Of a stretch of DNA of 64,000 nt, positions 41,791-61,573 are shown piece by piece; position 1 is the first letter of the stretch, and each line of letters begins with the position of its first letter. The stretch is from an uncultured delta proteobacterium. Lineage in GTDB: Bacteria; Desulfobacterota; Binatia; UBA9968. The stretch lies in contig CAVYTU010000008.1 in the NCBI GenBank assembly GCA_963771465.1, forward strand, positions 286,469 through 350,468. The letters run 5' to 3'. The position numbers were made by a program, and so were the translations under genes. The notes beneath the pieces were generated by a model that searched no databases, was not told the origin of the DNA, and was given only the letters and a program-made list of their open reading frames with translations.

Positions 41791-44544
41791 CTACACCTCG
41801 CCAAGTGGGAAATGCAGGTAGAAGGTCGCGCCGCTTCCCGGCGCGCTCTCCACGCTGATCCGCCCTTTATGGGTTTCCATAATGCGCTCGCAGATGAAGA
41901 GCCCGAGCCCCATACCCTTGCTCTTTTTAGTACTGTAGAAAGGGCGAAAGATGTTCGCCTTGGTTTCGGCATCGATTCCCGTGCCCGTATCTGTGACCGC
42001 GATGATCAACTCGCGGCCACCCGAACCTTCTTTTCTATCAGCCGGTAGCTCCTGTCTTGAAGAAGTAACTGCGCGAATCGTCAGGACACCGCCGTTGGGC
42101 ATGGCTTCGGCGGCGTTAAAGCAGAGGTTGATGATCACCTGGCGCAGCTGTTGGGGATCGGCGTAGATGTGCGGCAGTCCGGGTGGAATGACCGTCTCAA
42201 CCTTTACTTTGGACTTCTCCAGGTAGGGTAGACACACCTTTAGACTGTCATCGATGGTGTATTCAACAGCAGCGAGCACTAGATCCGCGGTGGAAGGGCG
42301 GGCAAGATCGAGAAGACTTTTAATGATCTCCTTGCAACGGACGGTTTCCTGGACAACAATCTTTAAGGAATGCTGGTGCGACTGCGATGCCGTCCGGTCA
42401 TCGATCATATCCTGGGTGAATCCCAGAATAATCTGCAGCGGATTGTTAAATTCGTGCGCGATGGACGCCGCGAGCTCGCCGAAGGAAATCAAACGGTCCG
42501 AGACGATGAGTTTTTCCTCGAGTTTTTTCGTCACGTCGCGCAGTTTTTGCTCGACTCTCTGGCGCACCGCCATGCCGGCTCTGAGAGCTTCGTTGGCCTC
42601 GGCCAGCTCCTGGGTCCGCTCCTGCACTCGCAATTCGAGATTGTCGTGGGCTTTCTGTAAGTCCACCGCCTGAGCTTGGCTCTGTTCGTAGAGCTGAGAA
42701 TTGTAAATGGCGATGGCCGCCTGGATTGCCACGGAGGACAGAAAATCGATTTCTTCGTCGCTAAACTCGTGTTCTTCCCTGGTGTAGAGGCAAAGAATTC
42801 CATTGACTTCTTGTTTGATAATCAGTGGAATCGCAAGACACGAGACTAAACTGTTTCTTACGTAGAAGTCGGGAACCATGGAACGCGAATCGGTTTGAAC
42901 GTTACGCACAATCAGGGGCGCCTTGGATTCAATCACCTGTTGGGCCCGACCGTCGGATGATGGGCTTTGGGCCGCATGCCATTCAGTTAGGTCGATGTTT
43001 CGGCAGCATAACTTCTCCAGCTTTTTGTTTTCGCGGTTGAGCAGTCTGACCGTAGTCGCGATCGGATAGGGAAAACTGACCTCGATTCTGTGCAGGAGAA
43101 CGCTCAGGACTTCTTGCAGATCTAACGTGGAGCTAATGACGCTATTGATATCGTGCAGAGTCGTGATGCGCTGGAGATCGGTTAGTATTTGCTCCTCGGC
43201 GCGCTTTCGATCGGTGATATCGCGCACGATGGCAATGACCTTGTCGCCGCCCAGCGGGCTGAGCATGATGTCCACGGGGAACTCGCTGCCATCCTTGCGC
43301 CGACCACGCAGATCAAGACCGACTCCCATCGAACGGATGCGGGGTTCAGTCATGTAACCTCGCCGATGTTTCGCATGGCTATTTCGGAACCGCTCGGGAA
43401 TTAACATCTCAATGGAATTTCCCAGTAATTCTTGGCGGCTATAGCCAAACATAGTCTCTACTGGGGCGTTGAGGTGTGCCATGAGACCCGCCTGATCGAG
43501 GACGACGATGGCGTCCGGCGCATATTCGAAGAGGCTCTGATTGAATTGCTCGCTTTGCCGCAGCAACTCTTCCGCCTTTTTCCGCTCGGTAATGTCGGTT
43601 GCGATACCGCAAGTCGCGTTAATATTTCCGACCGCGTCAAACAGCGGGAATTTAGTGACAAGACTGGTGTGCGGCCCGTCGCCGTGGAGCGCAACTTCTT
43701 CGAATTGCAGCGGCTCGCCGGATTGGAGCACCTTGAGATCGTTGCGGCGAAATGTCGCAGCGGGTTCATGAGCGAAGATCTCAAAGTCGGTCTTGCCTAA
43801 AAGCTTTGAGCCGGCTTGATGGGTGAGTTTTTCAAATTCTGGATTGACGTACAGATAGCGTCCTTCAACGTCTTTGAGGAATATCATTGACGGACTGTTG
43901 TCCATGACTCCTGCCAGCCGGGTTTCGCTCTCGCGCAGGGCTTGCTCGGATTGCTTGCGCTCGCTTATGTCGCGCAGGAGCCAGCGCAGGCCGATGGGAC
44001 GCGCCCCCCGCGTCGAGACGTCAACGATCCTCGAAACCGCCAACGAAGTCGGGAACGATGGGCCACGACGTGGCTGCATTTCCGCTTCCCATGTCCGTAT
44101 CTTCTCTTCGTTTTTCAGTCCGTCGAGTAACTTTCTGAATGGCTGATGCTGCGCTTGCGGAATAAAAACGATGATCGGCTTACCGACGAGAAAGTTCTGC
44201 CGTACGCGCAGCAGCTTTGCCGCAACGCGGTTGGCTTCGTGAATGGTACCGAGCATGTCGGTTACCAGGTAACCGTCCGGGGCGAAATCAAACAGCTCGA
44301 GATAGTGCCGGCGTTGGGCTTCTAATTCCTGCCGAGAGGCCGCTAATTGCTCGTTAGAGGCACGCATTTCCTCCACCGACACTTGCAACTCTTCCAAGGC
44401 GATGGAAAGTTCTTCCAAGGCTTCGTTCACTAGCCCTGGGTCGGGAGAAGACACGCCGGCGCGACGGTATAGATCTTCCAGCCGTTGGCGGGCGGCCTGC
44501 GCTTGTCGGGCGAGGGTCGTCTCTCCTCTCACCGCCGCTTTCAT
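41791..44544 (-). CDS. Cytoplasmic sensor histidine kinase (coiled coil, three PAS, GAF, HisKA, HATPase)
   Basis: AHEFNNPL, NLCFNAAEA, DTGTGI, GMGLGL; ATG overlaps the CheR stop. Confidence 0.93.
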   Translation of the reverse strand: MKAAVRGETTLARQAQAARQRLEDLYRRAGVSSPDPGLVNEALEELSIALEELQVSVEEMRASNEQLAASRQELEAQRRHYLELFDFAPDGYLVTDMLGTIHEANRVAAKLLRVRQNFLVGKPIIVFIPQAQHQPFRKLLDGLKNEEKIRTWEAEMQPRRGPSFPTSLAVSRIVDVSTRGARPIGLRWLLRDISERKQSEQALRESETRLAGVMDNSPSMIFLKDVEGRYLYVNPEFEKLTHQAGSKLLGKTDFEIFAHEPAATFRRNDLKVLQSGEPLQFEEVALHGDGPHTSLVTKFPLFDAVGNINATCGIATDITERKKAEELLRQSEQFNQSLFEYAPDAIVVLDQAGLMAHLNAPVETMFGYSRQELLGNSIEMLIPERFRNSHAKHRRGYMTEPRIRSMGVGLDLRGRRKDGSEFPVDIMLSPLGGDKVIAIVRDITDRKRAEEQILTDLQRITTLHDINSVISSTLDLQEVLSVLLHRIEVSFPYPIATTVRLLNRENKKLEKLCCRNIDLTEWHAAQSPSSDGRAQQVIESKAPLIVRNVQTDSRSMVPDFYVRNSLVSCLAIPLIIKQEVNGILCLYTREEHEFSDEEIDFLSSVAIQAAIAIYNSQLYEQSQAQAVDLQKAHDNLELRVQERTQELAEANEALRAGMAVRQRVEQKLRDVTKKLEEKLIVSDRLISFGELAASIAHEFNNPLQIILGFTQDMIDDRTASQSHQHSLKIVVQETVRCKEIIKSLLDLARPSTADLVLAAVEYTIDDSLKVCLPYLEKSKVKVETVIPPGLPHIYADPQQLRQVIINLCFNAAEAMPNGGVLTIRAVTSSRQELPADRKEGSGGRELIIAVTDTGTGIDAETKANIFRPFYSTKKSKGMGLGLFICERIMETHKGRISVESAPGSGATFYLHFPLGEV

Positions 44545-46413
44545 CGTTCCACTTCCTCCATCAATAATACGACTCCGTGACGCTCCTTGTTCTGGAGCTG
44601 GAGGTGAGGTCGGAGATTCAGTGGCGTGCATGTGATGCGGCATTTGATAGCCTTGCCTCGACGGTTAGTGGCGTCCAATTCGACCTCCTGGTATTCCGCC
44701 TCGCCGGACAAGCAGGGACGCACGGCTCCCCGTAGTTTCTCGACCGGCAGACCGATTTCCAGGTTCAGTAACGATCGTCCTTTGACTTCAGCTTCTCTGA
44801 GCCCCCACAGGTCCTCGGCTCTGTGATTCCAGACTAGGATGTTGAGATTTCGGTCTACGACCACGGCTCCGGAGCGAAGGCCGGCGAGGATCGATTGCAA
44901 GAAAGCATTGGCACGATTGAGTTCCTCTGAGCTCTGGCGCAACTCGTCGTTAACCGTCCGCAGTTCTTCGTTGGTAGACTGCAATTCCTCGTTCATGGTC
45001 TCGAGCTCTTCATTGGTGGACTGCAGTTCTTCGTTGGTGGTCTCGAGCTCCTCGTTAGTAGACTGCAACTCCTCATTGGTGGTTTGGAGCTCTTCGTTGG
45101 TGGACTGGAGCTCCTCATTGGCGGTTTGGACTTCTTCCCTGGCGCGCTGGAGTTCCTCCTGCAGCCTGTGGAAGAGCGTCACGTCGGCGAATGAGACGGC
45201 GACACCTATCGGGATATTCACTTCCTCATAAAGCGGTGTGACCGTGACGTCCAGGTACTGAATTTCTCCGTTGGGAAAGTGTCGATCCACGCTTGTCAGG
45301 GTAACCGAGCGATGCTCGGCGTAGGCTTGTTCGATAAGAGAACGCAATTCCACGGGACGATAGGATAGCTCCAGATCCTGCAAGGGTCGTCCGATATCCT
45401 TAGGATTTATACTCAGAAGAATTCGCGCCTTTTGGTTGGCGAATGCAAGATTGCCATTCAAATCCACCGCGACCCTGGCCACGGGAGACAACTCGAAGGT
45501 CATGTCGCGCAGACGATTCGTCCTGGCAATCGTTACAGGGTTGGCTTCATGGTTGCCCGGCTGGGCCATGGCTAATAAGCGATCCCGCCCGTTGGCGTGT
45601 GGCACTTTGGCAAAGACGCGGTATTGGAGATCAGTGGGGGTGAAGAGGTTGCTGTGCGTGAGCATCAACTCCGCCCGTCCCAAAAAGAGAAATCCAGTTT
45701 CGTTGATGGCGAAATGAAAGCGCGCCAGGATGCGTCCTTGAGCCTCGGCGTTGAAATACATGATGGTATTGCGGCTGATCAGCAAGTCGAGCCGGGAGAT
45801 GGGCGCGTCCTGGATCAGGTCATGGCGACCGAAGATGACCGAACGTCGCAAATCAGCGCGAAAGACATAGCGACTATTGATCAGCTCAAAGTATTTGTTG
45901 CGCAGTTTGGCGTCGAGAGATTCCACCTCTTTTGCGCTGTAACTAGCCTGGCGGGCCGTGTTGAGAGCTTCCTCGTCTACGTCCGTGGCGTAAATTTTGA
46001 CCCGGTGGCGGAACGGTTCCATTCCCATCGCTTCTGCCAGCACGATCGCAACGGTATAGGCCTCTTCGCCGGAGGCACAACCTGCGCTCCAGACACGCAA
46101 GGTTTCATCCGATTTTTTGTCTTTGAGGATGCGCGGGATGATCTCCTCAGCCAGATAGCTCCAGGGGGCCGGGTCGCGAAAAAAAGCGGTGACGTTGATC
46201 AAGATGATATTGAAGAGCTGTAGATATTCCTCCGGGTGGACTTCCAGATAATCGATGTAGTCGGCGAAACTTTCGATACCGACCATCTCCATTCGTTTGC
46301 TTATCCGGCGCATCAGGCTCGGGCGTTTGTAGCCGGTGAAGTCGAAGCCGCGGTTTTGCTGGAGATAGTAAAGCAAAGATTCGAACTGCTTGGTTGTCTT
46401 CGCGCTCGCTCAC
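44541..46413 (-). CDS. cheR: CheR-type methyltransferase with PAS and NEELQST coiled-coil repeats
   Basis: GFDFTGYK, INVTAFFRD, RVWSAGCASGEEAY, YATDVD, SRNTIMYF. Probable GTG start at 46413 with a one-base shift near 46390. Confidence 0.88.
44955..45125 (-). repeat. Coding 21-bp (heptad) tandem repeat, NEELQ(S/T)T/NEELET
   Basis: About eight imperfect heptads inside the CheR-PAS gene. Confidence 0.85.
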
Positions 46414-47048
46414 GGTGCGTCTCCGGTGGTGACCAGGGTTACCAGGGCCGGCGCAATCTCGTCGAGCGGCAGGACGAAATCGACGCACCCGGTTTGCACG
46501 GCGGCGCCCGGCATACCGAAGAATTCTGAGCTCTTCTCATCCTGGACGATCACGGTGCCGCCCATCTTCTTGATCGCCCTAACTCCCATGGAGCCATCGC
46601 TGCCCGTACCGGAAAGAACCACGGCGATGACGCGGTCTTTAAAGCTCGCGGCCACCGACTCGAACAATAAATCCGCGGAGGGTCGGACGAAGTGCACCAA
46701 TTCCGATTGCGAAAGCGAGAGCGTGCCGTCGGGATTGACCAGCAAATGTCTGTTGGGCGGTGCGATATAGGCCATCCCCGGCGTCAAGCGGCCTCCGTCT
46801 TCGGCCTGTTTGACTTGAAGCGCGGTGCGGCGGCTGAGAATGTCCGCCATCAAGCTGCGATGCCGGGGGTCGAGGTGCTGGACGACGACGATGGACGCGG
46901 GGAAATCGGCTGGCAGCGCAGCCAAGACATGGCTCAGCGCTTTCAGGCCACCGGCCGAAGCCGCCAGCGCGATGATGTCAAAGACGCCTTTGGCGGACTC
47001 CTGGCCGATATGCGATCGGTTCTCTGGGGAAAGTTGTTTTTCTCCCAT
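46410..47048 (-). CDS. cheB: CheB-type methylesterase, catalytic domain only
   Basis: ASAGG (Ser), VVQH (His), RPSAD, LSGTGSDG (Asp), GMP; no receiver domain. Confidence 0.92.
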   Translation of the reverse strand: MGEKQLSPENRSHIGQESAKGVFDIIALAASAGGLKALSHVLAALPADFPASIVVVQHLDPRHRSLMADILSRRTALQVKQAEDGGRLTPGMAYIAPPNRHLLVNPDGTLSLSQSELVHFVRPSADLLFESVAASFKDRVIAVVLSGTGSDGSMGVRAIKKMGGTVIVQDEKSSEFFGMPGAAVQTGCVDFVLPLDEIAPALVTLVTTGDAP

Positions 47049-51771: not shown

Positions 51772-53410
51772 ATGGCGGTTCTGCTCGCCATCCTGACCGC
51801 CTTCATCCTCTACCCGGTCCTCAGTGTGTTGTGGATTTCGCTGTCGGACGATGGCAGCAACCTAACCCTCATCCATTTCGCCAATTTCTTTCGCCGTCCG
51901 CTGTTTCGCGAAGCGCTGTGGAACACGCTCTGGAGCGGCGCGTTGGTCGTCTTGTTCAGCGCCGTCCTGGCATTGCCGCTCGCTTACGTGCTGGCGCGCT
52001 ACGAATTCCGCGGCAAGCTGCTTTTACAAACCGCGGCGACGCTGCCGCTCGTCATTCCGCCTTTCGTCGGCGCGGTGGCGTTGCAATTGATTCTCGGCCG
52101 CAGCGGCATGGTGAATTTACTGCTGATGGACTGGTTCGAAATATCGATCCCGTTCATGGAAGGACTCGCCGGCGTGGTGTTGGTGCAAACGCTGCATTTC
52201 TTTCCCTTCATCCTGCTCAATACCGTGGTGTCGCTAGCGAACATCGATTCATCGCTGGAAGAGGCGGCAAAAAATTTGGGCTGCCACGGCTTTCGATTAT
52301 TCCGCCGTGTGACTTTGCCATTGATGCTGCCCGGTTTTATCGCCGGCTCGTTGCTAACTTTCATCCGCGCCATCGACGATCTCGGCACGCCGCTCATGCT
52401 CAACTACAAAAATCTTCTGGCGCCCCAGGCTTACTTGCGGATTACCACAATCGGTATGGACGATGTCGATGGCTATGTGGTTTGCGTCGTCTTGGTCGTG
52501 CTCTCGCTGGCGTCGCTGCTGGCGGCGCGGAAATATCTGAGTCTCGCCGAATACGCGAGCCTGCAGCGCGCCGCACCGGTCACCGGCACGCTGCATGGAT
52601 CGACGCTGGCGATCGTCTGGCTGGTCATCGCATTGATCTTAGCCGTTAGTCTGCTGCCGCATATCGGCATCGCGCTGCTGTCGTTCAGTAAAATCTGGAG
52701 CTTCACACTGTTGCCGACGACTTATACGCTGGGGAATTATGATGGAGATACTCTTTCGCGTGCCCCATTTCGTGATCAATACGCTCGTCTATACGCTCTT
52801 AGCCGCGGCGCTCGATATTGTCCTCGGCGCGACCATCGCTTTCCTGCTGCTCCGAAGTCGCGTGCCTGGGAAGAACCTGCTCGATGCCGTCGCCACCCTG
52901 CCGCTGGCAATCCCCGGCGTCGTCCTCGCGGTCGGCTATCTGCGCGTGTTTCACGGCTGGGACTTCCCCGGACTTGGCGCGCCGTTAACTTCCTCTTGGT
53001 TGATCCTTGTGGTCGCCTACAGCATGCGCCGGCTACCGTACACCGTGCGCGCCAGTTACGCCGCGCTGCAGCAAGTTCACGTCAGTCTCGAAGAGTCGGC
53101 GCAGAATCTTGGCGCCAATCGCCTGCGCACGTTCATACGCATCACGTTGCCGATGATTGGCAGCGGGCTGGTCGCCGGCGGGCTGATCGCGTTCATCACG
53201 TCCTGCGTCGAGCTCGCCTCGACGATCATGCTGGTACCGCGCATCGAACTCGGGCCGATCGCTTACGGCATTTATCTTTATATGCAGAGCCCGCTCGGTC
53301 GGGGCGCCGGCGCGGCCCTCGGCGTCGTCGCCATCCTGCTGGTTTCGCTCGGAACTTATCTGACCCATCGAATCTTCGGCGCGCGCGCCGGCAGCGCGTT
53401 CAGAGTGTAG
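51772..53410 (+). CDS. ABC permease (FbpB-type, two TM domains); frameshift near 52741
   Basis: EAA loops SLEEAAKNLG and SLEESAQNLGA; second half is ORF 52739-53410; true start may be ATG 51704 with a further shift. Confidence 0.87.
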
Positions 53411-53412
53411 CC

Positions 53413-54516
53413 ATGCAAGCCGGCGAGGTTGAGTTAGAAAAAATCGGTAAACGCTACGGCGAACAGTGGGTCGTGCGCAACATCGATCTGCACATTCAGC
53501 GCGGTGAGTTTTTTACCTTTCTCGGACCCAGCGGCTGCGGCAAAACCACTTTGCTGCGCATGATCGCCGGCTTCGTCGAACCCGACGCCGGGCTCGTGCG
53601 GCTCGACGGCCAAGTGGTCAATCAGGTGCCGCCGTGGCGGCGCGATATCGGCATGGTATTTCAGAGCTATGCGCTCTGGCCGCACCTGACCGTGTTTGAA
53701 AACGTCGCTTTCGGCCTGCGCGAGCGAAAAGTGGCGCGCGCGGAAATCAACCAGCGCGTGACGGACGCACTCAAGCAGGTGGAGCTGCAAGGCACTGACG
53801 CGCGCCGGCCGTCACAGCTCTCCGGCGGCCAGCAACAACGCGTCGCGTTAGCGCGCACGCTGGTGATCCAACCGCGCGTGCTTTTGCTCGATGAGCCGCT
53901 GAGCAATCTCGACGCGAGATTGCGCATCGAGATGCGTCTTGAGCTGTTGAAATTGCAGCGCGATCTGGGTCTCACGACGATTTACGTCACCCACGATCAA
54001 GAGGAAGCCTTGGCCATGTCGACCCAGATCGCCGTAATCGACCGCGGCCGGGTCATCCAGCAGGGCAAGCCGCGGGAAATTTACGAAACCCCAGCCGACG
54101 ATTTTGTCGCCGCCTTTATCGGCCAGTCGAATTTGCTGCCGGCACGGATCGATCGAGTACTGAGCGAATCGGTTGTCGTTACGGTTGAAGGCGGTATGGA
54201 ATTAACGCTCGGATTACCAATGCCAGTTAAAACCATCGCATCCGGCGATGCCGTAATGTTAAGCGTTCGCCCCGAGGCCATCGAACTCATTGATACGAGC
54301 GTGCAATCTGACCGTAAATCCCGAATCGAAGGAACGATCGCCGCTTCCGCCTATCAAGGCGCCTTTGTCGAATATGAAATCGCTGCGTTAGGAAAGAGTT
54401 TGAAAGCGCGTGTCGCCAGCCCGAGAGGAAAACCCCTGTTTGAGAGAGGTGATGAAATTGCGTTTAGTTTTGCCGCCGCGGACGTGACGTTGATAGCGGC
54501 ACAGCAGAAAAGTTAA
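53413..54516 (+). CDS. ABC ATP-binding protein (FbpC/PotA type, TOBE domain)
   Basis: GPSGCGKT, LSGGQQQR, LLDEPLSNLD, VTHDQEEA. Confidence 0.93.
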   Translation: MQAGEVELEKIGKRYGEQWVVRNIDLHIQRGEFFTFLGPSGCGKTTLLRMIAGFVEPDAGLVRLDGQVVNQVPPWRRDIGMVFQSYALWPHLTVFENVAFGLRERKVARAEINQRVTDALKQVELQGTDARRPSQLSGGQQQRVALARTLVIQPRVLLLDEPLSNLDARLRIEMRLELLKLQRDLGLTTIYVTHDQEEALAMSTQIAVIDRGRVIQQGKPREIYETPADDFVAAFIGQSNLLPARIDRVLSESVVVTVEGGMELTLGLPMPVKTIASGDAVMLSVRPEAIELIDTSVQSDRKSRIEGTIAASAYQGAFVEYEIAALGKSLKARVASPRGKPLFERGDEIAFSFAAADVTLIAAQQKS

Positions 54517-54603: not shown

Positions 54604-55725
54604 TCAGGCGTAATTACGCTGCTCGAACGCTGCCGGCGCGGTAGTGGCTGCCTGAGCTGGGAAGCTCATTAGCACGCGCGTGCCGACGTTCGGCGTGCTG
54701 GTGATTTCCAATTTGCCACCGATGATTTCGGCCATGCGCCGCGCCACCGTGAGGCCGAGACCGAGACCGGAAAAAGATCTGACCGAGGAGTTATCCGCCT
54801 GATGAAACGGTTCGAAAATCGAATCGATCTTATTCTCCTCGATGCCGGTGCCGGTGTCGACGACTTCAAATACCACGCTGCGGCGGTCCGATGACGGCTG
54901 CACGCGCACGGTCACGCTGCCCTCGCGGGTGAATTTAACCGCGTTATTGAACACGTTCTGAAACACCCGCTCGACCTTGGATCGGTCGCTGACGATGGCC
55001 ACGCCGCTGTCGGCGATTTCGACATTGACCGTCAATCCTTTCTCGCGAATGCCCTTGTCATAGCGCTTGACGGTTTCATTGACGATGTCGTGGGCGTTGA
55101 ATTGCTCGATCGTCGCGCTGCTATCGCCGACGTTGAGCGAGGTCATCCACAGGACGTTATCGATCAGTTCGAGCAGCTCCTCGGAATTGCGATACACGGT
55201 CTCGAGAATCTTTTGCTGCTCCTCGCTCAATTTACCGATCACTTGGTTGAGTAGTAAGTAAACGAATCCGACGACGACGCTTAACGGAGTTCTGAGTTCG
55301 TGGGATACGTTCGACAAGAAATCCGATTTCACCTGGCGCAGCCGCGCTTTGGCGTTGCGCCGTTCAAGCCCACGCCGCACCAACGACAAGATATGATTCA
55401 CATCGAACGGCTTGGAAATGTAATCGAAAGCGCCGAGGCGAAGCCCCTCGATGGCGGTGTCCAGCGACCCGTAGCCGGTAATGATGATCGCTTCGATATC
55501 GGGATCATGTTCTTTTACCTTTTCCAAAACGTTGATTCCCGTGAGACCGGGCATCTTGAGGTCCACCGTCACTAGATCGACAGGAATTTCTTTAAGCATC
55601 TCGATGGCTTGAGCGCCCCGGTCGGCCACGTGTACGGTGTAATAGGGATTGAGAATCATTTTGAGTGATTCGCGCGGACCCATTTCATCGTCGACAATCA
55701 GGATATGGGGTTTGCTGGTTTCCAT
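54604..55725 (-). CDS. Hybrid response regulator/histidine kinase (REC-HisKA-HATPase)
   Basis: ILIVDDE, VTVDLKMP, SHELRTPL, NAVKFT, DTGTGI, GLGLGL. Confidence 0.92.
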   Translation of the reverse strand: METSKPHILIVDDEMGPRESLKMILNPYYTVHVADRGAQAIEMLKEIPVDLVTVDLKMPGLTGINVLEKVKEHDPDIEAIIITGYGSLDTAIEGLRLGAFDYISKPFDVNHILSLVRRGLERRNAKARLRQVKSDFLSNVSHELRTPLSVVVGFVYLLLNQVIGKLSEEQQKILETVYRNSEELLELIDNVLWMTSLNVGDSSATIEQFNAHDIVNETVKRYDKGIREKGLTVNVEIADSGVAIVSDRSKVERVFQNVFNNAVKFTREGSVTVRVQPSSDRRSVVFEVVDTGTGIEENKIDSIFEPFHQADNSSVRSFSGLGLGLTVARRMAEIIGGKLEITSTPNVGTRVLMSFPAQAATTAPAAFEQRNYA

Positions 55726-55738
55726 ATCGGCTGGAATC

Positions 55739-55754
55739 AGCAAGCTATATGCCA
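55739..55754 (-). promoter_or_regulatory. Sigma54 (-24/-12) promoter candidate
   Basis: Minus strand TGGCATATAGCTTGCT (GG-N10-GC), about 14 nt before ATG 55725. Confidence 0.65.
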
Positions 55755-55844
55755 CGGGAGAACTGCTGACAACCAGCCGAATTTAAAGAATATTCAGCAA
55801 TGGAAGGGGACAACCGGAAGCTTTAGAGGAACAAAATTGTCCAA

Positions 55845-57251
55845 TTATGGCGATAATTTAGCTTCGTCATCGACATCGTTGGGATCGTGGATGTTAAGCT
55901 TTTCGATGCGGTACTTCAAGATTCTGCGGCTCGTACCCAACAGCGATGCGGCCTTGGTTTGATTGAAGCCGGTGCGTTGCAGCGCTTTGACGATCAGGTC
56001 GCGCTCGAACTCATCGACGGCATCGCTGAGCGGGCGCGAGCCGCTCAAGACGTCTTCTTTAAGCGTCGCGGTTTGATCGGTGGAACGCATGCCGACGGGC
56101 AGGTCGCGCAGCATGATGGTTTCATGCGGCGTCAAGATCGTCACCCGCTCGATTAGGTTTTCCAGTTCACGAATGTTACCCGGCCAGGGATACATGGTGA
56201 AGAAATCGATCACTTCCGGTGACAGACTTTTGGTCGCGATCGAATGCTCCTGCGCCTTGAGGCGCAAAAAATGATCGAGCAAGAGCGCAATGTCCTCACG
56301 CCTTTCTCGCAGCGGTGGCAATAACAGCGAGACCACGTTGAGCCGATAAAACAGATCCGGGCGAAACTCCGCGTTCTTCGCCAGTTGCTCAAGATCGCGG
56401 TTGCTCGCCGCGATGACGCGCACATCAACCTTGATTTCGTCGGTACCGCCCAAACGGCTAAAGGTTTCCTGCTCGATGGCGCGCAAGAATTTTGCCTGAG
56501 TACCGAGATTGAGCTCGCCGATCTCATCAAGAAACAGGGTGCCGCCATGGGCGAGCTCGAAGCGGCCGAGCTTTTTCTGCGATGCATTGGTAAAAGCGCC
56601 GCGCTCATATCCGAACAGCTCGCTTTCGATCAAAGTGTCCGGCAACGCCGCGCAGTTGACCACCACGAAGGGCTTGGAGCGCCGATCGCTATTGTAGTGA
56701 AGCGCGCGGGCGATGAGTTCCTTGCCGGTGCCGCTCTCGCCTGTGATTAACACGGTGCTCTTCTTGGCCGCCACCATGCTCACGGCTTTAAAGACATCGA
56801 CAATTTGTTTTGACTTGCCGATGACGTGATCAATGCCGTATTTGCGCCCGACTTCTTCTTTGAGCCGCTCCAACTCGCGCGACAGTTGAATTTTTTCCAG
56901 CGCATGCTCGACGCGCAGCCTGAGTTCTTCGACGTCAAACGGCTTGGTTACGTAATCAAACGCACCCGTTCCCTTGGCCGCAAACGCAGTGCGCGCTGTG
57001 TTGAGTCCGGTGAGCATAATCACCTGACAATCGGGATGGATCGATTTGATCTGCCGGAGCACCGCCAGACCGTCGGAGCCCGGCATCATGATGTCTAATA
57101 AAACGACATCGGGTTTCTCATCCGTTAGCTTTTGAATTGCCTCGTCGGCGGACGGCGCTTCAATCACCCGATAGATCTTGCCGAATACCATCTGCAGCGA
57201 CTGCCGCACCCCGGCCTCATCGTCGACCACCATCATCAACGGCTGATTCAT
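55845..57251 (-). CDS. Sigma54-dependent response regulator (NtrC family)
   Basis: [48 protein letters not shown]. Confidence 0.95.
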
Positions 57252-57252
57252 A

Positions 57253-59154
57253 TCAAGTTTCTTTTCCGTGCTCTCCAATCGGAAACTCCAATCTCAAAAG
57301 ATCTTTATCTGGGTCGGAATGATTGATGGCGAGACTGCCGCCGTTTCTCTCGACCAGCTGCTTCGCCAATAAGATTCGTAACGGTAGTATCCCCGCGTTG
57401 GGCTCGCCCGAAGCACCGCCGAGATAGTGAGTAATCGATGCCACACGAGCGCCCTCTCGGAGATAGACAACGGTCACGGCTCCTGCTCGGACAGTGTCGA
57501 TCTCGATCTCACTGCCCATTTTCACCTGGGACAGCGCCGCCAGGAGAAGGTTTTTTAATATGTAACCGAGCTGCGACTCGTCGGCGCTTATTTCGTGGCC
57601 CACACCATCGCCCTTCCACACAAAACGGGACTGCCGTTTGACAGCTTCTTGATGCAGATCATTGGCCGCGATGCGGAGTTTCTCTGCAAGGGATACTTTC
57701 GTGGGTTTGGGCCGCGAGAAATCGGCGAACTCGATCATCGCTTCCAAGAGATCGTCCATACGCTCGATATCGCCGCCGACGATTTCCTGAAAACGGGCGC
57801 GAAAATTCTCGTCCTCATAACGGTCGCCGAGCAGTTGCGCGAAGGTCTTGATCGTCACCATGGGATTCTTAAGCTCATGCGCGAGCTCATGAATCACTAA
57901 ACTCAAATCCACTGTTTGTCCGTGCCCGTTGGCCGACCCAGTACCAGCGAGGGTGCCGGTATAGACCTGAAGTCTGGGCTGGTCGGATGACGGATCCATG
58001 GCCATGTCGGGTTGAATCTCAGGGGAAAAAGGCCCAAGTGCCGCGCCGCGATCTTCGCCTCGGAAATCAAAAACCAAATCGCCGGCATCGATACGCCCGC
58101 CGCCGCTCACCGCCAGGGTCCGAGCGATCACCGTTTCCATTTCTTTGAGGTTACCAAACCAAAGATAATTCATCAGCTGACTGAGCGCTTGCGGTGAAAA
58201 TTCCGCTGCGCTCGCGGCCAGCATCACAGCATAACGACGCGCAAACCAGTTGGCGAGTGCCGGAATATCCTCACAGCGCTCGCGCAACGGTAATAATTTA
58301 AGCGTCAACGTCGCGAGTTTATAATAAAGCGCTTCGAGAAACTCGCCGCGATAGACGCGCTCTAACAATTCACCGCTCGCAGTCGTCAGATAGCGTAGCG
58401 GCGCGACTTGTTCTTCCTGTTCATCCAAAAAATCCAGCAGTAACGACTGCGTTGCCGGTGAGCTCTTTTCAAGATTCTCGATGAGCAGTGTCGTCGCCGT
58501 GGCATCGATGATTCGCTTTGTCGAAATCTCAACGCGCTTTTGCGCCAAATAACCGACGCTCACATCGGCGGCACTCATCAATATTGTTACGCCAGGATTC
58601 GGTTGTGTCGCGCGCATTCCGCGCGCCACTCGGTCTTGTCCGCAGCCCAGTTCGCCGAAAATTAGGATCGGCAAACGCACCGCCGCAAAACGTTCCACCA
58701 AACTGGCCGTGCTTCGGCTGACGTAAGGGTAGGCAACGTAGCGCTTGAGTTCATCCGGCTTCTCATCGTGATCGAATACGCGCAGCCGCGTTGATCCCGC
58801 GTGCCGCGCCAGTAACTCACCAACCCGCTCATGCAATTCATAGGGATTAAATGGCTTTGTCAGGCATGCTAGATGACCGTGTTCGGTGATTGCGCGGGCG
58901 GTTGTTTTGGTCTCGACCAAGAAGAGCACAGCAAATGGCAGTTGCGCGGCGAACCGCACAAGATGGCTCGCTTCGGCGCCAAGCTGTGGCGCAACACCAA
59001 AGATCAACAAATCGATCGGTTCGCTGGAAGCTTCAACGAACGGCAACTCACCAATCCTGAGGGATCTTTTTGAGACGCTGAATTCACGTCCCAGGATCAG
59101 CGCAAGCGTCTCCCGGATAACTTCCGATTCATCAATGACTAAGATTCGCTTCAT
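57253..59154 (-). CDS. Fusion of pseudo-receiver, degenerate sigma54-activator AAA+ domain, HisKA/DHp and degenerate HATPase
   Basis: KRILVID/LTKPF; GELGCGQD, PLRERCEDIP, WFGNLKEME; LAHELKNPM; N-box remnant ILKNLL without a DxGxG box. Confidence 0.8.
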   Translation of the reverse strand: MKRILVIDESEVIRETLALILGREFSVSKRSLRIGELPFVEASSEPIDLLIFGVAPQLGAEASHLVRFAAQLPFAVLFLVETKTTARAITEHGHLACLTKPFNPYELHERVGELLARHAGSTRLRVFDHDEKPDELKRYVAYPYVSRSTASLVERFAAVRLPILIFGELGCGQDRVARGMRATQPNPGVTILMSAADVSVGYLAQKRVEISTKRIIDATATTLLIENLEKSSPATQSLLLDFLDEQEEQVAPLRYLTTASGELLERVYRGEFLEALYYKLATLTLKLLPLRERCEDIPALANWFARRYAVMLAASAAEFSPQALSQLMNYLWFGNLKEMETVIARTLAVSGGGRIDAGDLVFDFRGEDRGAALGPFSPEIQPDMAMDPSSDQPRLQVYTGTLAGTGSANGHGQTVDLSLVIHELAHELKNPMVTIKTFAQLLGDRYEDENFRARFQEIVGGDIERMDDLLEAMIEFADFSRPKPTKVSLAEKLRIAANDLHQEAVKRQSRFVWKGDGVGHEISADESQLGYILKNLLLAALSQVKMGSEIEIDTVRAGAVTVVYLREGARVASITHYLGGASGEPNAGILPLRILLAKQLVERNGGSLAINHSDPDKDLLRLEFPIGEHGKET

Positions 59155-60640
59155 TCACTTGCGCGTGACCGTTGGCAGCCGGCCGGATGGGTTTTCCCAC
59201 CGGCACATGGATGAAGAACGACGTTCCTTTTCCAACGGTACTTTCAACCGTTACAAATCCCCCATGTTCTTGTACGATCTGGTGCGACACCGCTAGACCC
59301 AGACCGCTACCCTCGTCCTTGCTAGTGAAAAATGGATCGAAGATATGGTGTAAGTTTTCTTCCGGAATTCCGATACCATCATCTCTCACTTCGACTTGAA
59401 CGAACTCACCCGCAGGCTGGACTCCGCTTCTCTCGACGGCCCGACTCAAAAGCGTGATCTTGCCGGCGCCTGTCATCGCTTGGATAGCGTTCAAAATGAG
59501 GTTCATAAATACCTGCTTCATCTGCTCTCTGTCAATCCACGCCTTAGGCAAGTCAGCACCAAATTGGCGGGAAATTTCCACGCCCTTTTCCTTCGCCTGG
59601 GTTTCGAGAATGCGGGCGATATTATCGACTACATCGTTGACATTTTCCGGCGCCACATTGGGCTTGGATGGCCTTGCAAAGGTCAAGAGGTCGGTAATGA
59701 GACCGCAAATCCGATCAACTTCCTTGAGTGCCAGCCCTTGGAACCCCTCGCGGAATTCCGGATCGTCGTAACGTTCGGGTAAAAGTTGGGTGAATGTCCG
59801 GATGGCTACCAATGGATTACGAATTTCATGCGCGAGACCGGCCGTCAGCAGTCCTAGCGACGACAAGCGATCGGCACGCCGCAAAGTATCCTGCGACTGC
59901 TTCAGCTCCCGCTCGCGCTGCACAAGCCGCTCGGCCATCTGATCGAACCCCAAGGCGAGGGTGCCGATCTCATCGTCTCTAACGATGCCGACTCGATATT
60001 GCAGATCACCTTCCTCGATCCGTTTCGCGGCTATGGTGAGCTGTTCAATCGGTCTAACCATTCTCATCGCGATGCCGAAAATAATCGCCGCTCCAACGAA
60101 AAAGATCGCTGTCGAAATTGATATGCTCTTAATAGTCAGCGACCTCATTTCGCTAAGCATGGGATTGAGATTGAACCCTAGGCGAATTCCTCCCAGCTTC
60201 TGGTGCCCCAAAATCACCGGCTTGGAAATACCCAATATCTCTTTTTCATAATCGATATCGATAAGAGTCTGATCAGCTTTTATGACCCTCTGGCTTAGCT
60301 CGTCACGAAGCGTTGCGAGATACAATCGATTGTCGTCGTGAAAGTCTCCCACGATTCTGCCTTTGTCATCGTAGATATAGGCATAATCAACATCAGGTAG
60401 AGCCTTTGCCTGCCGCGCAATTGCTCCAAGGTGGTAGATATCCATCTTATAAAGCGGAGCCGAGACACTTAGCTCCATAAGGTCGATCCCGACTCGTGCT
60501 CTATCGCCCATCTCCTCGATCAAAAGACTCCTCTGAGACCGAATCGTTAGGAACGTGAGAGCGCCCAGCGCAGCCAGGTAGAAAAGTGCAAAAGAGAGAA
60601 AAACCCGGAGCTTGAGACCGAGTTTAAACTTTCGAGACAT
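59132..60640 (-). CDS. Membrane-bound HAMP sensor histidine kinase
   Basis: Two TM segments, periplasmic domain, HAMP (RDDEIGTLA), LAHEIRNPL, NLILNA, DDGIGI, GSGLGL. Confidence 0.93.
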   Translation of the reverse strand: MSRKFKLGLKLRVFLSFALFYLAALGALTFLTIRSQRSLLIEEMGDRARVGIDLMELSVSAPLYKMDIYHLGAIARQAKALPDVDYAYIYDDKGRIVGDFHDDNRLYLATLRDELSQRVIKADQTLIDIDYEKEILGISKPVILGHQKLGGIRLGFNLNPMLSEMRSLTIKSISISTAIFFVGAAIIFGIAMRMVRPIEQLTIAAKRIEEGDLQYRVGIVRDDEIGTLALGFDQMAERLVQRERELKQSQDTLRRADRLSSLGLLTAGLAHEIRNPLVAIRTFTQLLPERYDDPEFREGFQGLALKEVDRICGLITDLLTFARPSKPNVAPENVNDVVDNIARILETQAKEKGVEISRQFGADLPKAWIDREQMKQVFMNLILNAIQAMTGAGKITLLSRAVERSGVQPAGEFVQVEVRDDGIGIPEENLHHIFDPFFTSKDEGSGLGLAVSHQIVQEHGGFVTVESTVGKGTSFFIHVPVGKPIRPAANGHAQVNEANLSH

Positions 60641-60649
60641 GGTTGATTG

Positions 60650-61573
60650 CTACCACGATTCAACCTGTTTCCCGAGGGAAGAGAAAATGAATTTTTCAAC
60701 CACTCTCATGCGTTCATGAGATGCTGGGGGGATCGCGTCGATATTGGTTGTACCCTGCTGTCGGGTCAGCACCCCTTGACCTTCTGGATTTTTATCCATG
60801 CTGATCAACAACTCTTTGACCGCTGCAACGATCTTAGGGTCGAGATCCTTTCGTACCGAAATGATTTGTCGCGGCACGGAGATTGATTTTGCAGCGATCT
60901 TGATTCCTTCTTGAATCTCGGGCCTCAAAGCTTGAAACTCCCGATAGGATGTCGCAGCGGCATCGACTTTGCCGGTGACTAGTAGATTGATCGCGTTATC
61001 GTCGCTACCGTGAATATAACCTATGGCATCTGATTCGACCTTTCCCGGCGTCACCACTTGAACCAGTTTGAACTTATGCTCCGTCAAAATCATGCGGGGA
61101 AGAATGTGAGCAGAGGTCGAATGAGGCTCATCAAATGCGAGAACTTTACCCTTCAAACCACTCAGAGCGTCGATACCGCTATCCTTTTTCACCAAGATGA
61201 CACTGTAGTACTCAGCTTCCTTATACTTCCATTGCCTCAAAATAGGCATGGAACCTGACCACTTGGACATTACCAATGTCGCGGCGACGCTATCATGGAA
61301 GAGATCGACTTTGCCCTCTTTTGCGGCCTGGGCAAGCTGGCTAACCTTATCGACTACTAGAATTTTACCTCCGGTAAACCCCAGTGGGGCCAATTTCTTA
61401 GCGATATAATCAACAAACTCTTGGCGATCCTTGATGGCTCTGACCGGATTATCCTGAACTCTACCGAAGACAAGAAGCTTTTCCTCGGCACCGAGAGCAG
61501 AATGAGAAGCCAAAGCGATTGATAGGAAAATGAAGGAACAAATCGATACGAGAACCGGCCTGTAGCGGTACAT
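60650..61573 (-). CDS. Phosphate/phosphite/phosphonate-binding protein (PhnD-like)
   Basis: Signal peptide; YYSVILVKKDSGI, LKGKVLAF, STSAHILP, GKVDAAA. Confidence 0.8.
   Translation of the reverse strand: MYRYRPVLVSICSFIFLSIALASHSALGAEEKLLVFGRVQDNPVRAIKDRQEFVDYIAKKLAPLGFTGGKILVVDKVSQLAQAAKEGKVDLFHDSVAATLVMSKWSGSMPILRQWKYKEAEYYSVILVKKDSGIDALSGLKGKVLAFDEPHSTSAHILPRMILTEHKFKLVQVVTPGKVESDAIGYIHGSDDNAINLLVTGKVDAAATSYREFQALRPEIQEGIKIAAKSISVPRQIISVRKDLDPKIVAAVKELLISMDKNPEGQGVLTRQQGTTNIDAIPPASHERMRVVEKFIFSSLGKQVESW

Follow-up and report, generated by a model that had tools for sequence, protein, structure and literature searches.

Spo0B shares with ChpT a design in which a dimerization and histidine phosphotransfer (DHp) domain carrying a phospho-His is combined with a Bergerat-fold domain that does not bind ATP. 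DivL and RetS employ their DHp and catalytic, ATP-binding (CA) domains to bind partners or to regulate, rather than to autophosphorylate with ATP, with RetS acting on another kinase and DivL having a Tyr instead of the phospho-His. Of the σ54-dependent activators, or bacterial enhancer-binding proteins (bEBPs), FleT/FleQ and HrpR/HrpS are hetero-oligomeric and TyrR, VpsR, and NtrX lack the GAFTGA loop. ChpT itself, according to PMC3433190, consists of a dimeric DHp with a phospho-His and a Bergerat-fold domain incapable of ATP binding, and does not autophosphorylate. The gene analyzed here lies at positions 57253–59154 (−) of a 64,000-nucleotide stretch of DNA from an uncultured delta proteobacterium of the Binatia (contig CAVYTU010000008.1 of assembly GCA_963771465.1; hereafter the window). 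In its product, for which FAM is used as a working name, an activator-like half is fused to a kinase-like half, with the ATP sites removed and the phospho-His box alone kept.

FAM resembles ChpT and Spo0B in having a DHp and an ATP-incompetent CA-like domain, and would resemble them in its predicted dimeric state, but differs in carrying the full HisKA H-E-x-x-N-P box and an N-terminal NtrC-like pseudo-receiver/AAA+ half, in being encoded between a non-hybrid kinase and a regulator, and in being dispensable in natural variants; ChpT was not among the listed Foldseek matches of the C-terminal model. With DivL and RetS it shares the DHp-CA fold (structural matches 4q20 and 6dk7), the difference being that the His of FAM is near-invariant and its CA motifs are gone. 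Its N-terminal 370 residues are homologous to the activators NtrC1, NtrC4, and DctD and have the same fold with the long α5/linker helix, but lack the phospho-Asp, the Walker A Lys, the Walker B acidic pair, the GAFTGA loop, and the helix-turn-helix (HTH), and a DHp-CA module takes the place of the DNA-binding domain. As in FleT/FleQ, HrpR/HrpS, RedR1/RedR2, TyrR, VpsR, and NtrX, a bEBP-type AAA+ domain occurs without the usual DNA binding or σ54 contact, and the hetero-oligomerization of RedR1/RedR2 (PMC10084136) is a precedent for co-assembly by FAM; those proteins, however, are transcription factors or active ATPases, and no fusion to a DHp was found in the literature searched.

A first, sequence-only reading of this DNA knew of no characterized protein with such an architecture. 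This held in a full-text literature search, which found no description of a protein with a receiver, a σ54-type AAA+ domain, and HisKA; most subscription journals lay outside its scope, and an earlier description is possible. From its sequence, FAM is rated as a new, conserved accessory pseudo-enzyme of two-component signaling. By analogy, it is proposed to work most like ChpT/Spo0B or like phosphatase-biased kinases and pseudo-kinases such as DivL and RetS; its N-terminal half belongs by descent to the NtrC1-type activators.

Domain architecture of FAM

The FAM reading frame is open throughout its 633 codons plus the stop. It overlaps the upstream kinase gene by 23 nt (59132–59154), and its 3′ end either overlaps the downstream NtrC gene by 26 nt, if TTG 57278 is the start codon of the latter, or stops 1 nt short of ATG 57251. 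The uninterrupted frame abutting or overlapping both neighbors that the sequence-only reading had described is therefore borne out, and all the motifs quoted there were located in FAM on alignment with the adjacent NtrC and kinase. The domain order is pseudo-receiver, NtrC1-like AAA+, a disordered linker of ∼45 residues, HisKA DHp, and a CA-fold domain. Pfam matches were obtained to AAA_lid_14 (58 bits, residues 291–369), Sigma54_activ_2 (40.3 bits, 153–290), HisKA (33.9 bits, 420–478), and, in part, Sigma54_activat (29.1 bits, 217–285), with Response_reg at 15.8 bits (residues 4–111) against a cut-off of 30.2. There was no Pfam match to HATPase_c or to an HTH, whose place is occupied by DHp-CA. 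No curated Pfam or NCBIfam model covers the full protein, and no NCBIfam model matched at its cut-off, the best being NifA, PrsR, and AtoC-type models at 74–80 bits against cut-offs above 500. An AlphaFold2 model of full-length FAM, built from an 85-sequence alignment, had a mean predicted local distance difference test (pLDDT) of 85.3 and a predicted template-modeling score (pTM) of 0.50, as expected for beads on a string, with the receiver, the AAA+ and lid, the DHp hairpin, and the α/β domains confident and residues 123–127 and 377–412 disordered.

The pseudo-receiver (residues 1–118; 58801–59154, (−)) is assigned from the sub-threshold Response_reg match, a column comparison with NtrC, and the β-α receiver fold of the model. 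Gly53, within PIDLLIFG, aligns with the phospho-Asp at the end of β3 in the neighboring NtrC, and D8/E9 and K100 (in TKPF) are retained. As a receiver (PF00072), FAM therefore has the fold, by DSSP of the model, and the conserved Lys, and lacks the phospho-acceptor Asp. Its most conserved parts in an alignment of 119 full-length sequences are TKPFNPYEL and helix α5. A helical linker (residues 119–150; 58705–58800, (−)), with DSSP helices at 104–130 and 133–140, extends the receiver α5 as in NtrC1-type activators.

The α/β subdomain of the pseudo-AAA+ domain follows (residues 151–290; 58285–58704, (−)) and was recognized by Pfam, alignment, and Foldseek. Walker A reads GELGCGQD compared with GESGTGKE in NtrC, with loss of the Lys, and Walker B is TLLIENLE (LLIENL compared with LFLDEI), with the acidic pair gone. 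The GAFTGA loop is deleted, ∼11 residues being missing relative to NtrC, and the FRPDLFYRL motif of NtrC is FLEALYYKL, which replaces the Arg of FRxDL with Leu; the stretch LAHELKNPMVTIKTFAQLLGDRYEDENFR, quoted at the outset, is also present. The lid (residues 291–369; 58048–58284, (−)), which contains PLRERCEDIP and WFGNLKEME, is the top-scoring Pfam domain of the protein, and L290, W332, E338, and R345 of the lid region are invariant across the 85 aligned sequences. Judged as a bEBP (PF00158), FAM keeps the AAA+ fold with its lid and has lost Walker A/B, GAFTGA, and the C-terminal HTH_8. In a profile search of the PDB, the receiver and AAA+ domains of NtrC4 and NtrC1 in the inactive state matched the N-terminal 370 residues (∼E 1e-61), and Foldseek matched this half to NtrC1 (4l4u; 1ny5, “inactive state”), NtrX, VpsR, and NtrC4; the AAA+ part alone gave TMt values of 0.65–0.74 and root mean squared deviations of 2.7–5.0 Å with NtrC1, FlrC, PspF, and FleQ. 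The receiver-AAA+ half is not notably close to the adjacent NtrC, which ranks 8th among its genome paralogues at 23% identity.

The two halves are joined by a disordered and poorly conserved linker (residues 370–414; 57913–58047, (−)), with pLDDT below 50 for residues 377–412 and 29–38% identity to orthologues of the genus. The DHp (residues 415–482; 57709–57912, (−)), identified by the HisKA match, contains H426, E427, N430, and P431 in an intact H-E-x-x-N-P box (LAHELKNP). Sequence and alignments point to His426 (codon 57877–57879, (−)) as the putative phospho-acceptor, and H426 and N430 are invariant in the 85 aligned sequences. The C-terminal domain (residues 483–633; 57256–57708, (−)) is a pseudo-CA with a Bergerat fold, according to alignment, model, Foldseek, and PDB profile, in which the second N-box Asn is gone (LKNLLLAAL), G1 is REGARV compared with DDGIGI, and G2 is GILPLRIL compared with GSGLGLAV. 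Relative to the HisKA kinases, the DHp with its His, acidic H+1, and Asn at H+4 is present, and the CA lacks its N, G1, and G2 boxes. When the C-terminal 224 residues were modeled alone, a DHp with a CA fold was obtained (pLDDT 88.4, pTM 0.85), and the Foldseek matches of this model were HK853, including its complexes with RR468, CusS, DivL, ZraS, KinB, and RetS, with E values from 3e-12 to 1e-9 for HK853, CusS, DivL, ZraS, and RetS; the PDB profile search gave E 1.4e-33 for ZraS DHp-CA and 7e-14 for DivL. Because the nucleotide sites of both the CA and the AAA+ domain are dead, FAM is predicted to be unable to use ATP.

Extent, conservation, and loss of the family

A word-indexed search, in which 8000 candidates were scored, returned 722 proteins at E ≤ 1e-5. 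The best 120 of these are 55–98% identical to FAM, and 118 of them are full length (612–635 amino acids, 55–91% identity, 97–100% query coverage), with two fragments of 480 and 391 amino acids. When 1.84 billion cluster representatives were searched exhaustively, 139 matched at E ≤ 1e-30; many distant representatives (25–56% identity) match in one stretch from residue 1 to ∼625, and the architecture is common to ∼80 distant representatives with 21–56% identity. Source labels of the matches include “DNA-binding NtrC family response regulator,” “sigma 54-interacting transcriptional regulator,” and [quoted passage not shown] The taxon names are source labels of a minority of members: close matches are labeled Candidatus Binatia, Deltaproteobacteria, and once a Chloroflexota metagenome-assembled genome (MAG), and in distant clusters the members that carry names are MAGs of Deltaproteobacteria and Thermodesulfobacteriota. 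In a language-model atlas, FAM falls in a cluster that carries AAA_lid_14, HisKA, and Sigma54_activat and has Candidatus Binatota as its commonest phylum; in a neighboring cluster this is Myxococcota. FAM is present in a single copy in the genome of the window and has a match in 16 of 24 congeners (a tally that includes the unpublished G205), in 2/5 genomes of one sister family and 0/11 of another, and, at E ≤ 1e-40, in seven of 200 other sampled genomes of the phylum. A search with P0174 found nothing in five further genomes or in 301 genomes belonging to the same phylum as G241 (identified via L055, titled a Myxococcota MAG), a result that is uninformative for the 301, where four candidates per genome were scored. 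Seemingly near-full-length matches obtained with the pattern LAHE[LFI][KR]NP[ML] in Pseudomonas, Xanthomonas, Sphingomonas, and others were adjacent ordinary kinase and NtrC genes and not fusions (41 loci inspected); since the pattern is also common to many kinases, they lend no support to the family being in these genera.

A census of the diagnostic residues was made on 84 sequences, comprising the window protein, P0110, P0121, and 81 of the 82 representatives of 540–720 amino acids that had been taken into the alignment from 148 new ones; the remaining one, P0269, was excluded as an ordinary activator with GSFSGA present and no H-box. The His is kept in 83/84 sequences, Glu/Asp at H+1 in 82/84, Asn at H+4 in 84/84, and Pro at H+5 in 82/84. 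No sequence has the N, G1, and G2 boxes together (67 have none of them), and none has the GAFTGA insertion (0/84). The phospho-Asp is kept in 15/84, with Gly in 44, and the Walker A Lys, which the clade of the window lacks, in 42/84. From this census, the family is defined by a canonical H-box, an ATP-incompetent CA-like domain, and an AAA+ domain predicted to be unable to touch σ54. The receiver and the nucleotide site remain alive in some branches, with the clade of the window being the most degenerate, and distant members score 32.2 bits with Response_reg (L123), above the cut-off, and 103 bits with Sigma54_activat. The degenerate motifs are themselves conserved in the 119 full-length sequences (DLLILG, GE[IL]GCGQ, LVIENLDKSS, and LKNxLLAAL), and the DHp stretch 420–480 is ∼99% conserved. 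The pattern of degeneration is therefore not due to chance.

These data also bear out the sequence-based part of what the sequence-only reading had put forward. Judged from the sequence, three of the four domains of FAM are catalytically dead with the His retained, and the sequence-based checks proposed in advance were passed, in that orthologues with the same architecture and synteny exist and the His is conserved in them (83/84). The designation “triple pseudo-enzyme” fits the clade of the window and does not extend to the whole family, given the members that retain the phospho-Asp or the Walker A Lys.

Comparison with a 79%-identical orthologue gave a dN/dS of 0.18 for the whole FAM gene, with dS (0.62) not saturated. 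By segment, the ratio was 0.096 for the DHp, 0.13–0.22 for the three pseudo-domains and the lid, and 0.26–0.31 for the linkers, with 0.116 for the C terminus of the kinase in the same comparison. Where FAM is present, it is under purifying selection. Against orthologues of 41–60% identity dS was saturated or undefined, and dN alone was used. With 56–60%-identical orthologues, dN was 0.32–0.39 for FAM, 0.06–0.09 for NtrC, and 0.09–0.13 for the kinase DHp-CA, FAM evolving three to six times faster than its neighbors. The DHp is its slowest evolving domain and keeps their pace, with a dN of 0.075–0.10 compared with 0.24–0.44 in the other domains and 0.70–0.99 in the 370–414 linker.

No FAM match was found in eight of the 24 congeners, five of which were examined at the level of the locus. 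Two, G203 and G204, retain the kinase DHp-CA (80 and 78% identity, respectively), NtrC (88 and 86%), and the hybrid kinase that follows it (81 and 79%), with FAM replaced by 350–600 nt that contain an MRTLVIDES-like start and a C-terminal remnant. In G220 there are FAM remnants and the NtrC match is in three pieces, in G208 the module has decayed, and in G207 no orthologue was found; FAM has thus been lost or reduced in at least three congeners. Between the FAM remnants, G203 (L166, 6440–7030) and G204 (L167, 3940–4300) share a filler of ∼200 nt (ATTGTCATTCTTGTCACTTTTTGC...GTTGACAGTGTCAA...), and because of this common sequence the two losses were probably one event; the filler possibly carries a promoter or a small mobile element. 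The kinase, NtrC, and hybrid kinase are intact in G203 and G204 after the loss, which argues for FAM being an accessory and against its being an obligatory step of a relay; the kinase-activator pair survives without it.

Operon context and proposed function

Upstream of FAM lies a sensor kinase with transmembrane (TM), HAMP, HisKA, and HATPase_c regions and an intact CA (59132–60640, (−)), the DHp-CA of which is 79–88% identical in orthologues of the genus. Downstream is an NtrC/AtoC-type σ54 activator (55845–57278, (−), starting at TTG 57278 or ATG 57251) with a receiver, an AAA+ domain with GAFTNA, and HTH_8, which is 87–90% identical in the genus, and the fourth gene of the module (54604–55755, (−), likely start ATG 55725) encodes a receiver-HisKA-HATPase_c hybrid kinase, also found after NtrC in L114–L122, L128, and L166–L169. 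Fifteen loci were cut from related genomes, and the ORF caller identified FAM in 13 of them. Of these 13, 12 have the kinase directly upstream and 12 have the activator directly downstream, and wherever a flank is missing the contig ends. The caller overlooked FAM in L128 and L135; L128, where FAM is intact on translation by hand, is a fourteenth locus with both flanks. L125 (G076) was rejected as a member, as its E 3e-49 match spans two other ORFs and belongs to a different protein. The kinase-FAM-NtrC order persists at 28% identity (L123, L124, L126, and L127), and in a second, independent subfamily of 28% identity that retains Walker A, retrieved from metagenome contigs with P0154, the kinase is upstream in 11/12 and the activator downstream in 10/12, with the misses at contig ends.

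The kinase of most relatives is a ∼720-amino acid HisKA_7TM-GAF-HisKA-HATPase_c protein, and a β-ketoacyl synthase gene precedes it in five loci (L115, L116, L123, and L127, and L124 by size only). In the window and L119, the sensor module is of the TM/HAMP type, and genes for a PhnD-like binding protein, an MFS transporter, and a VTC-domain protein lie upstream. Between the window (59132–61573, (−)) and L114, L115, L116, L123, and L127, the kinase has thus exchanged its sensor part, with the DHp-CA still 79–88% identical. At a distant metagenome locus (L151, 1399–5705), two tandem kinases of ∼718 amino acids stand ahead of a FAM homologue and NtrC, a duplication of the kinase.

Thirteen nucleotides upstream of the hybrid kinase ATG 55725 is a σ54-type promoter, TGGCATATAGCTTGCT (55739–55754, (−)), of the form TGGCAT-N5-(C/A)TTGC(T/A), the only match to the consensus with one mismatch in the window. 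It is kept in 11/11 loci of the same order while the remaining spacer diverges, and a regular expression did not find it in three distant loci. Given the gene order, this conserved σ54-type promoter, and the presence of rpoN, encoding σ54, in the genome of the window, the circuit would run from the kinase to the activator, from there to the σ54 promoter, and on to the hybrid kinase; the FAM gene lies between those of the kinase and the activator. The distance from promoter to ATG is just 13–17 nt (55725–55754, (−), and L114–L122 and L128) with no Shine-Dalgarno sequence visible; the hybrid kinase transcript would thus have little or no leader, an unusual feature for a σ54 promoter. Directly 3′ of the NtrC stop, an imperfect palindrome seen by eye, TTGGACAATTTTGTTCC (55828–55844, (−)), is conserved in loci of the genus; it lies ∼75 nt upstream of the σ54 promoter and is a candidate site for activator binding. 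Four soil metatranscriptome libraries, from four studies, yielded contigs that match the operon at ≥95%. The FAM/NtrC junction is bridged by a 976-nt contig (57139–58114, 12 differences) and a 331-nt contig, and the kinase/FAM junction by one of 383 nt; these contigs hint weakly at expression, with DNA carry-over possible, and do not prove a single transcript.

In the genome of the window, the best paralogue of the FAM DHp is the adjacent kinase (42% identity over 66 residues, E 4e-13, the next being at 8e-5), and in a reverse search with the kinase DHp region FAM ranks second among 16 other matches. The DHp had been called closely paralogous to that of the kinase, which is accurate for helix α1 and not for DHp plus CA, where identity is 28%. 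Below the His, α1 is near-identical (HExKNPxVxIKTFAQLL in FAM compared with HEIRNPLVAIRTFTQLL in the adjacent kinase, 12/12 genomes), and the α1-α2 loop is of equal length with a similar motif (RYEDENFR compared with RYDDPEFR, 12 genomes), whereas α2 differs considerably. The DHp of the hybrid kinase is unrelated to that of FAM (15–20% identity). According to PMC3433190, receivers dock on α1 below the His, and because this surface is near-identical in FAM and the kinase, the two may address one receiver, that of the NtrC-type activator.

The favored explanation, to which a probability of about 0.4 is given, is that an ATP-independent homodimeric DHp docks the receiver of the activator and takes away its phosphoryl group, which would be hydrolyzed and/or transferred back to His426. 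FAM would homodimerize via its DHp, and probably via its NtrC1-like receiver-linker module, and the dimer would dock the receiver of the co-operonic activator on the α1 surface that the cognate kinase uses. It would then handle the phosphoryl group without ATP, most likely as a dedicated phosphatase and/or an acceptor of back-transferred phosphate on His426. Such removal would dampen or reset σ54 activation, with the pseudo-receiver/pseudo-AAA+ half, on its flexible tether of ∼45 residues, serving as a regulatory or anchoring part. According to Willett and Kirby (2012; PMC3510030), in HisKA proteins Asn or Thr at H+4 is needed for phosphatase and not for kinase activity, and Glu at H+1 for autophosphorylation and not for phosphatase activity. 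A phosphatase or acceptor is suggested by the constancy of the H-box, above all of the H+4 Asn, together with the dead ATP sites and the accessory status of the gene; we infer that FAM is a dimer, that it docks to the activator, and in which direction phosphoryl groups flow. Several points weigh against this explanation. With its near-invariant Glu at H+1, FAM looks less like a pure phosphatase than like a protein whose His426 is phosphorylated in trans by the CA of a kinase. The cognate kinase, which shares the H-E-x-x-N motif, could act as its own phosphatase, leaving a second one unexplained, and the strong conservation of the lid (W332, E338, and R345 invariant) is not accounted for by a DHp role alone. 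The similarity of α1 in FAM and the kinase may also stem from common descent and not from a shared partner.

It is possible, if somewhat unlikely, that the DHp of FAM instead heterodimerizes, as the sequence-only reading had suggested, with a protomer of the kinase, the CA of which would phosphorylate His426 in trans as an alternative phosphoryl route, or that FAM poisons kinase autophosphorylation, as RetS does with GacS. The kinase DHp region is the closest paralogue in the genome, the α1-α2 loop matches it in length and motif in 12 genomes, and the 23-nt overlap of the two genes suggests coupled translation. The Glu at H+1, needed for the chemistry of autophosphorylation (PMC3510030), is retained in 82/84 sequences, and pseudokinases and heterodimers of histidine kinases have been reported (PMC9491836 and PMC12675982). 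The considerable difference in α2 speaks against such pairing, as would the anchoring of the kinase in the membrane, where HAMP (7TM-GAF in relatives) runs into α1 of the DHp and would favor homodimers; the DHp of FAM is led by a disordered 45-residue linker and presumably not by a coiled coil. An anti-activator role, or co-assembly with the activator, is rather unlikely. Here, FAM would mimic an unphosphorylatable NtrC protomer, as the partner in an NtrC1-like off-state dimer or a dead subunit of the AAA+ ring, limiting σ54 activation and perhaps placing its DHp by the receivers of the activator. The most conserved parts of the pseudo-receiver, TKPFNPYEL and α5, correspond to the off-state dimer surface of NtrC1, the lid motifs are invariant, and the homology of the N-terminal half is to NtrC1 and NtrC4 in the inactive state (E 1e-61; Foldseek). 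In addition, GAFTGA is absent from 84/84 census sequences, so that none could itself engage σ54, and hetero-oligomers of paralogous activators are reported for RedR1/RedR2 (PMC10084136) and VnfA/AnfA (PMC9542535). However, the receiver-AAA+ half is only 23% identical to the adjacent NtrC (rank 8 among genome paralogues), the clade of the window is without Walker A/B and the FRxDL Arg, the usual supports of ring contacts, and the invariant His is left without a reason. A variant given equally low odds combines the two roles: as an activator mimic, the unphosphorylatable NtrC1-like half would bind NtrC, as off-state partner or dead ring subunit, and position the tethered DHp on the receivers of the activator, so that dephosphorylation, or back-transfer to His426, would be coupled to how the activator is oligomerized.

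A decaying relic, once an active regulator and now with little or no function in this lineage, is very unlikely. It would be in keeping with the rate of FAM (dN 0.32–0.39 compared with 0.06–0.13 in the neighbors), the extreme degeneration of its motifs in the clade of the window, the loss or reduction of the gene in at least three congeners, and the eight of 24 congeners without a match, but not with a dN/dS of 0.18 (0.10–0.22 in every domain and 0.26–0.31 in the linkers), with near-full-length open frames down to 55% identity in the best 120 of the 722 matches, or with the conservation of the degenerate motifs themselves. The least probable of the explanations considered is an obligatory ChpT/Spo0B-type phosphotransferase in a multistep relay, for instance from the hybrid kinase receiver to NtrC. 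A scaffold or phosphotransferase had been suggested at the outset, and the structural side of a phosphotransferase is present: the His is near-invariant (83/84) and the DHp with an ATP-incompetent CA-like domain is the ChpT design (PMC3433190); two receiver-bearing proteins are also encoded beside FAM. The loss of FAM in G203 and G204, which kept the kinase, NtrC, and hybrid kinase intact, argues against a role as an obligatory step; furthermore, the kinase lacks a receiver domain with which it could feed a relay, and the DHp of the hybrid kinase is unrelated to that of FAM.

Other genes of the window and significance

Elsewhere in the window, a 914-amino acid open frame (51772–54516, (+)) covers an ABC transporter unit in which Pfam places the first permease domain and the ATPase in frame and the second permease domain in another frame (52739–53410), the middle of the 914-residue frame being Arg/Pro-rich nonsense. 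A fused permease may be interrupted here by a frameshift or a misassembly, or the genes may overlap. A cluster at 41791–47048 (−) resembles a chemotaxis-like signaling module: its genes encode a CheB methylesterase, a CheR-PAS fusion, and a PAS-PAS-GAF histidine kinase, and no chemoreceptor gene was found among the ORFs scanned.

Two-component systems are usually drawn as a kinase and a regulator, and FAM is a widespread, fixed third gene, with sources that are mostly uncultured Binatia, Deltaproteobacteria, and Thermodesulfobacteriota MAGs by their labels. The annotations “sigma-54-interacting transcriptional regulator” and “NtrC family response regulator” are wrong on both counts, as FAM proteins have neither a GAFTGA loop nor a DNA-binding domain. 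Congeners with and without FAM constitute a natural experiment. Should FAM prove to be an anti-activator, a phospho-acceptor, or a phosphatase dedicated to this system, it would illustrate how a pathway can be regulated by pseudo-enzymes that descend from both of its own partners, and if it acts as an activator mimic, it would represent a new way of timing or terminating enhancer-dependent transcription.

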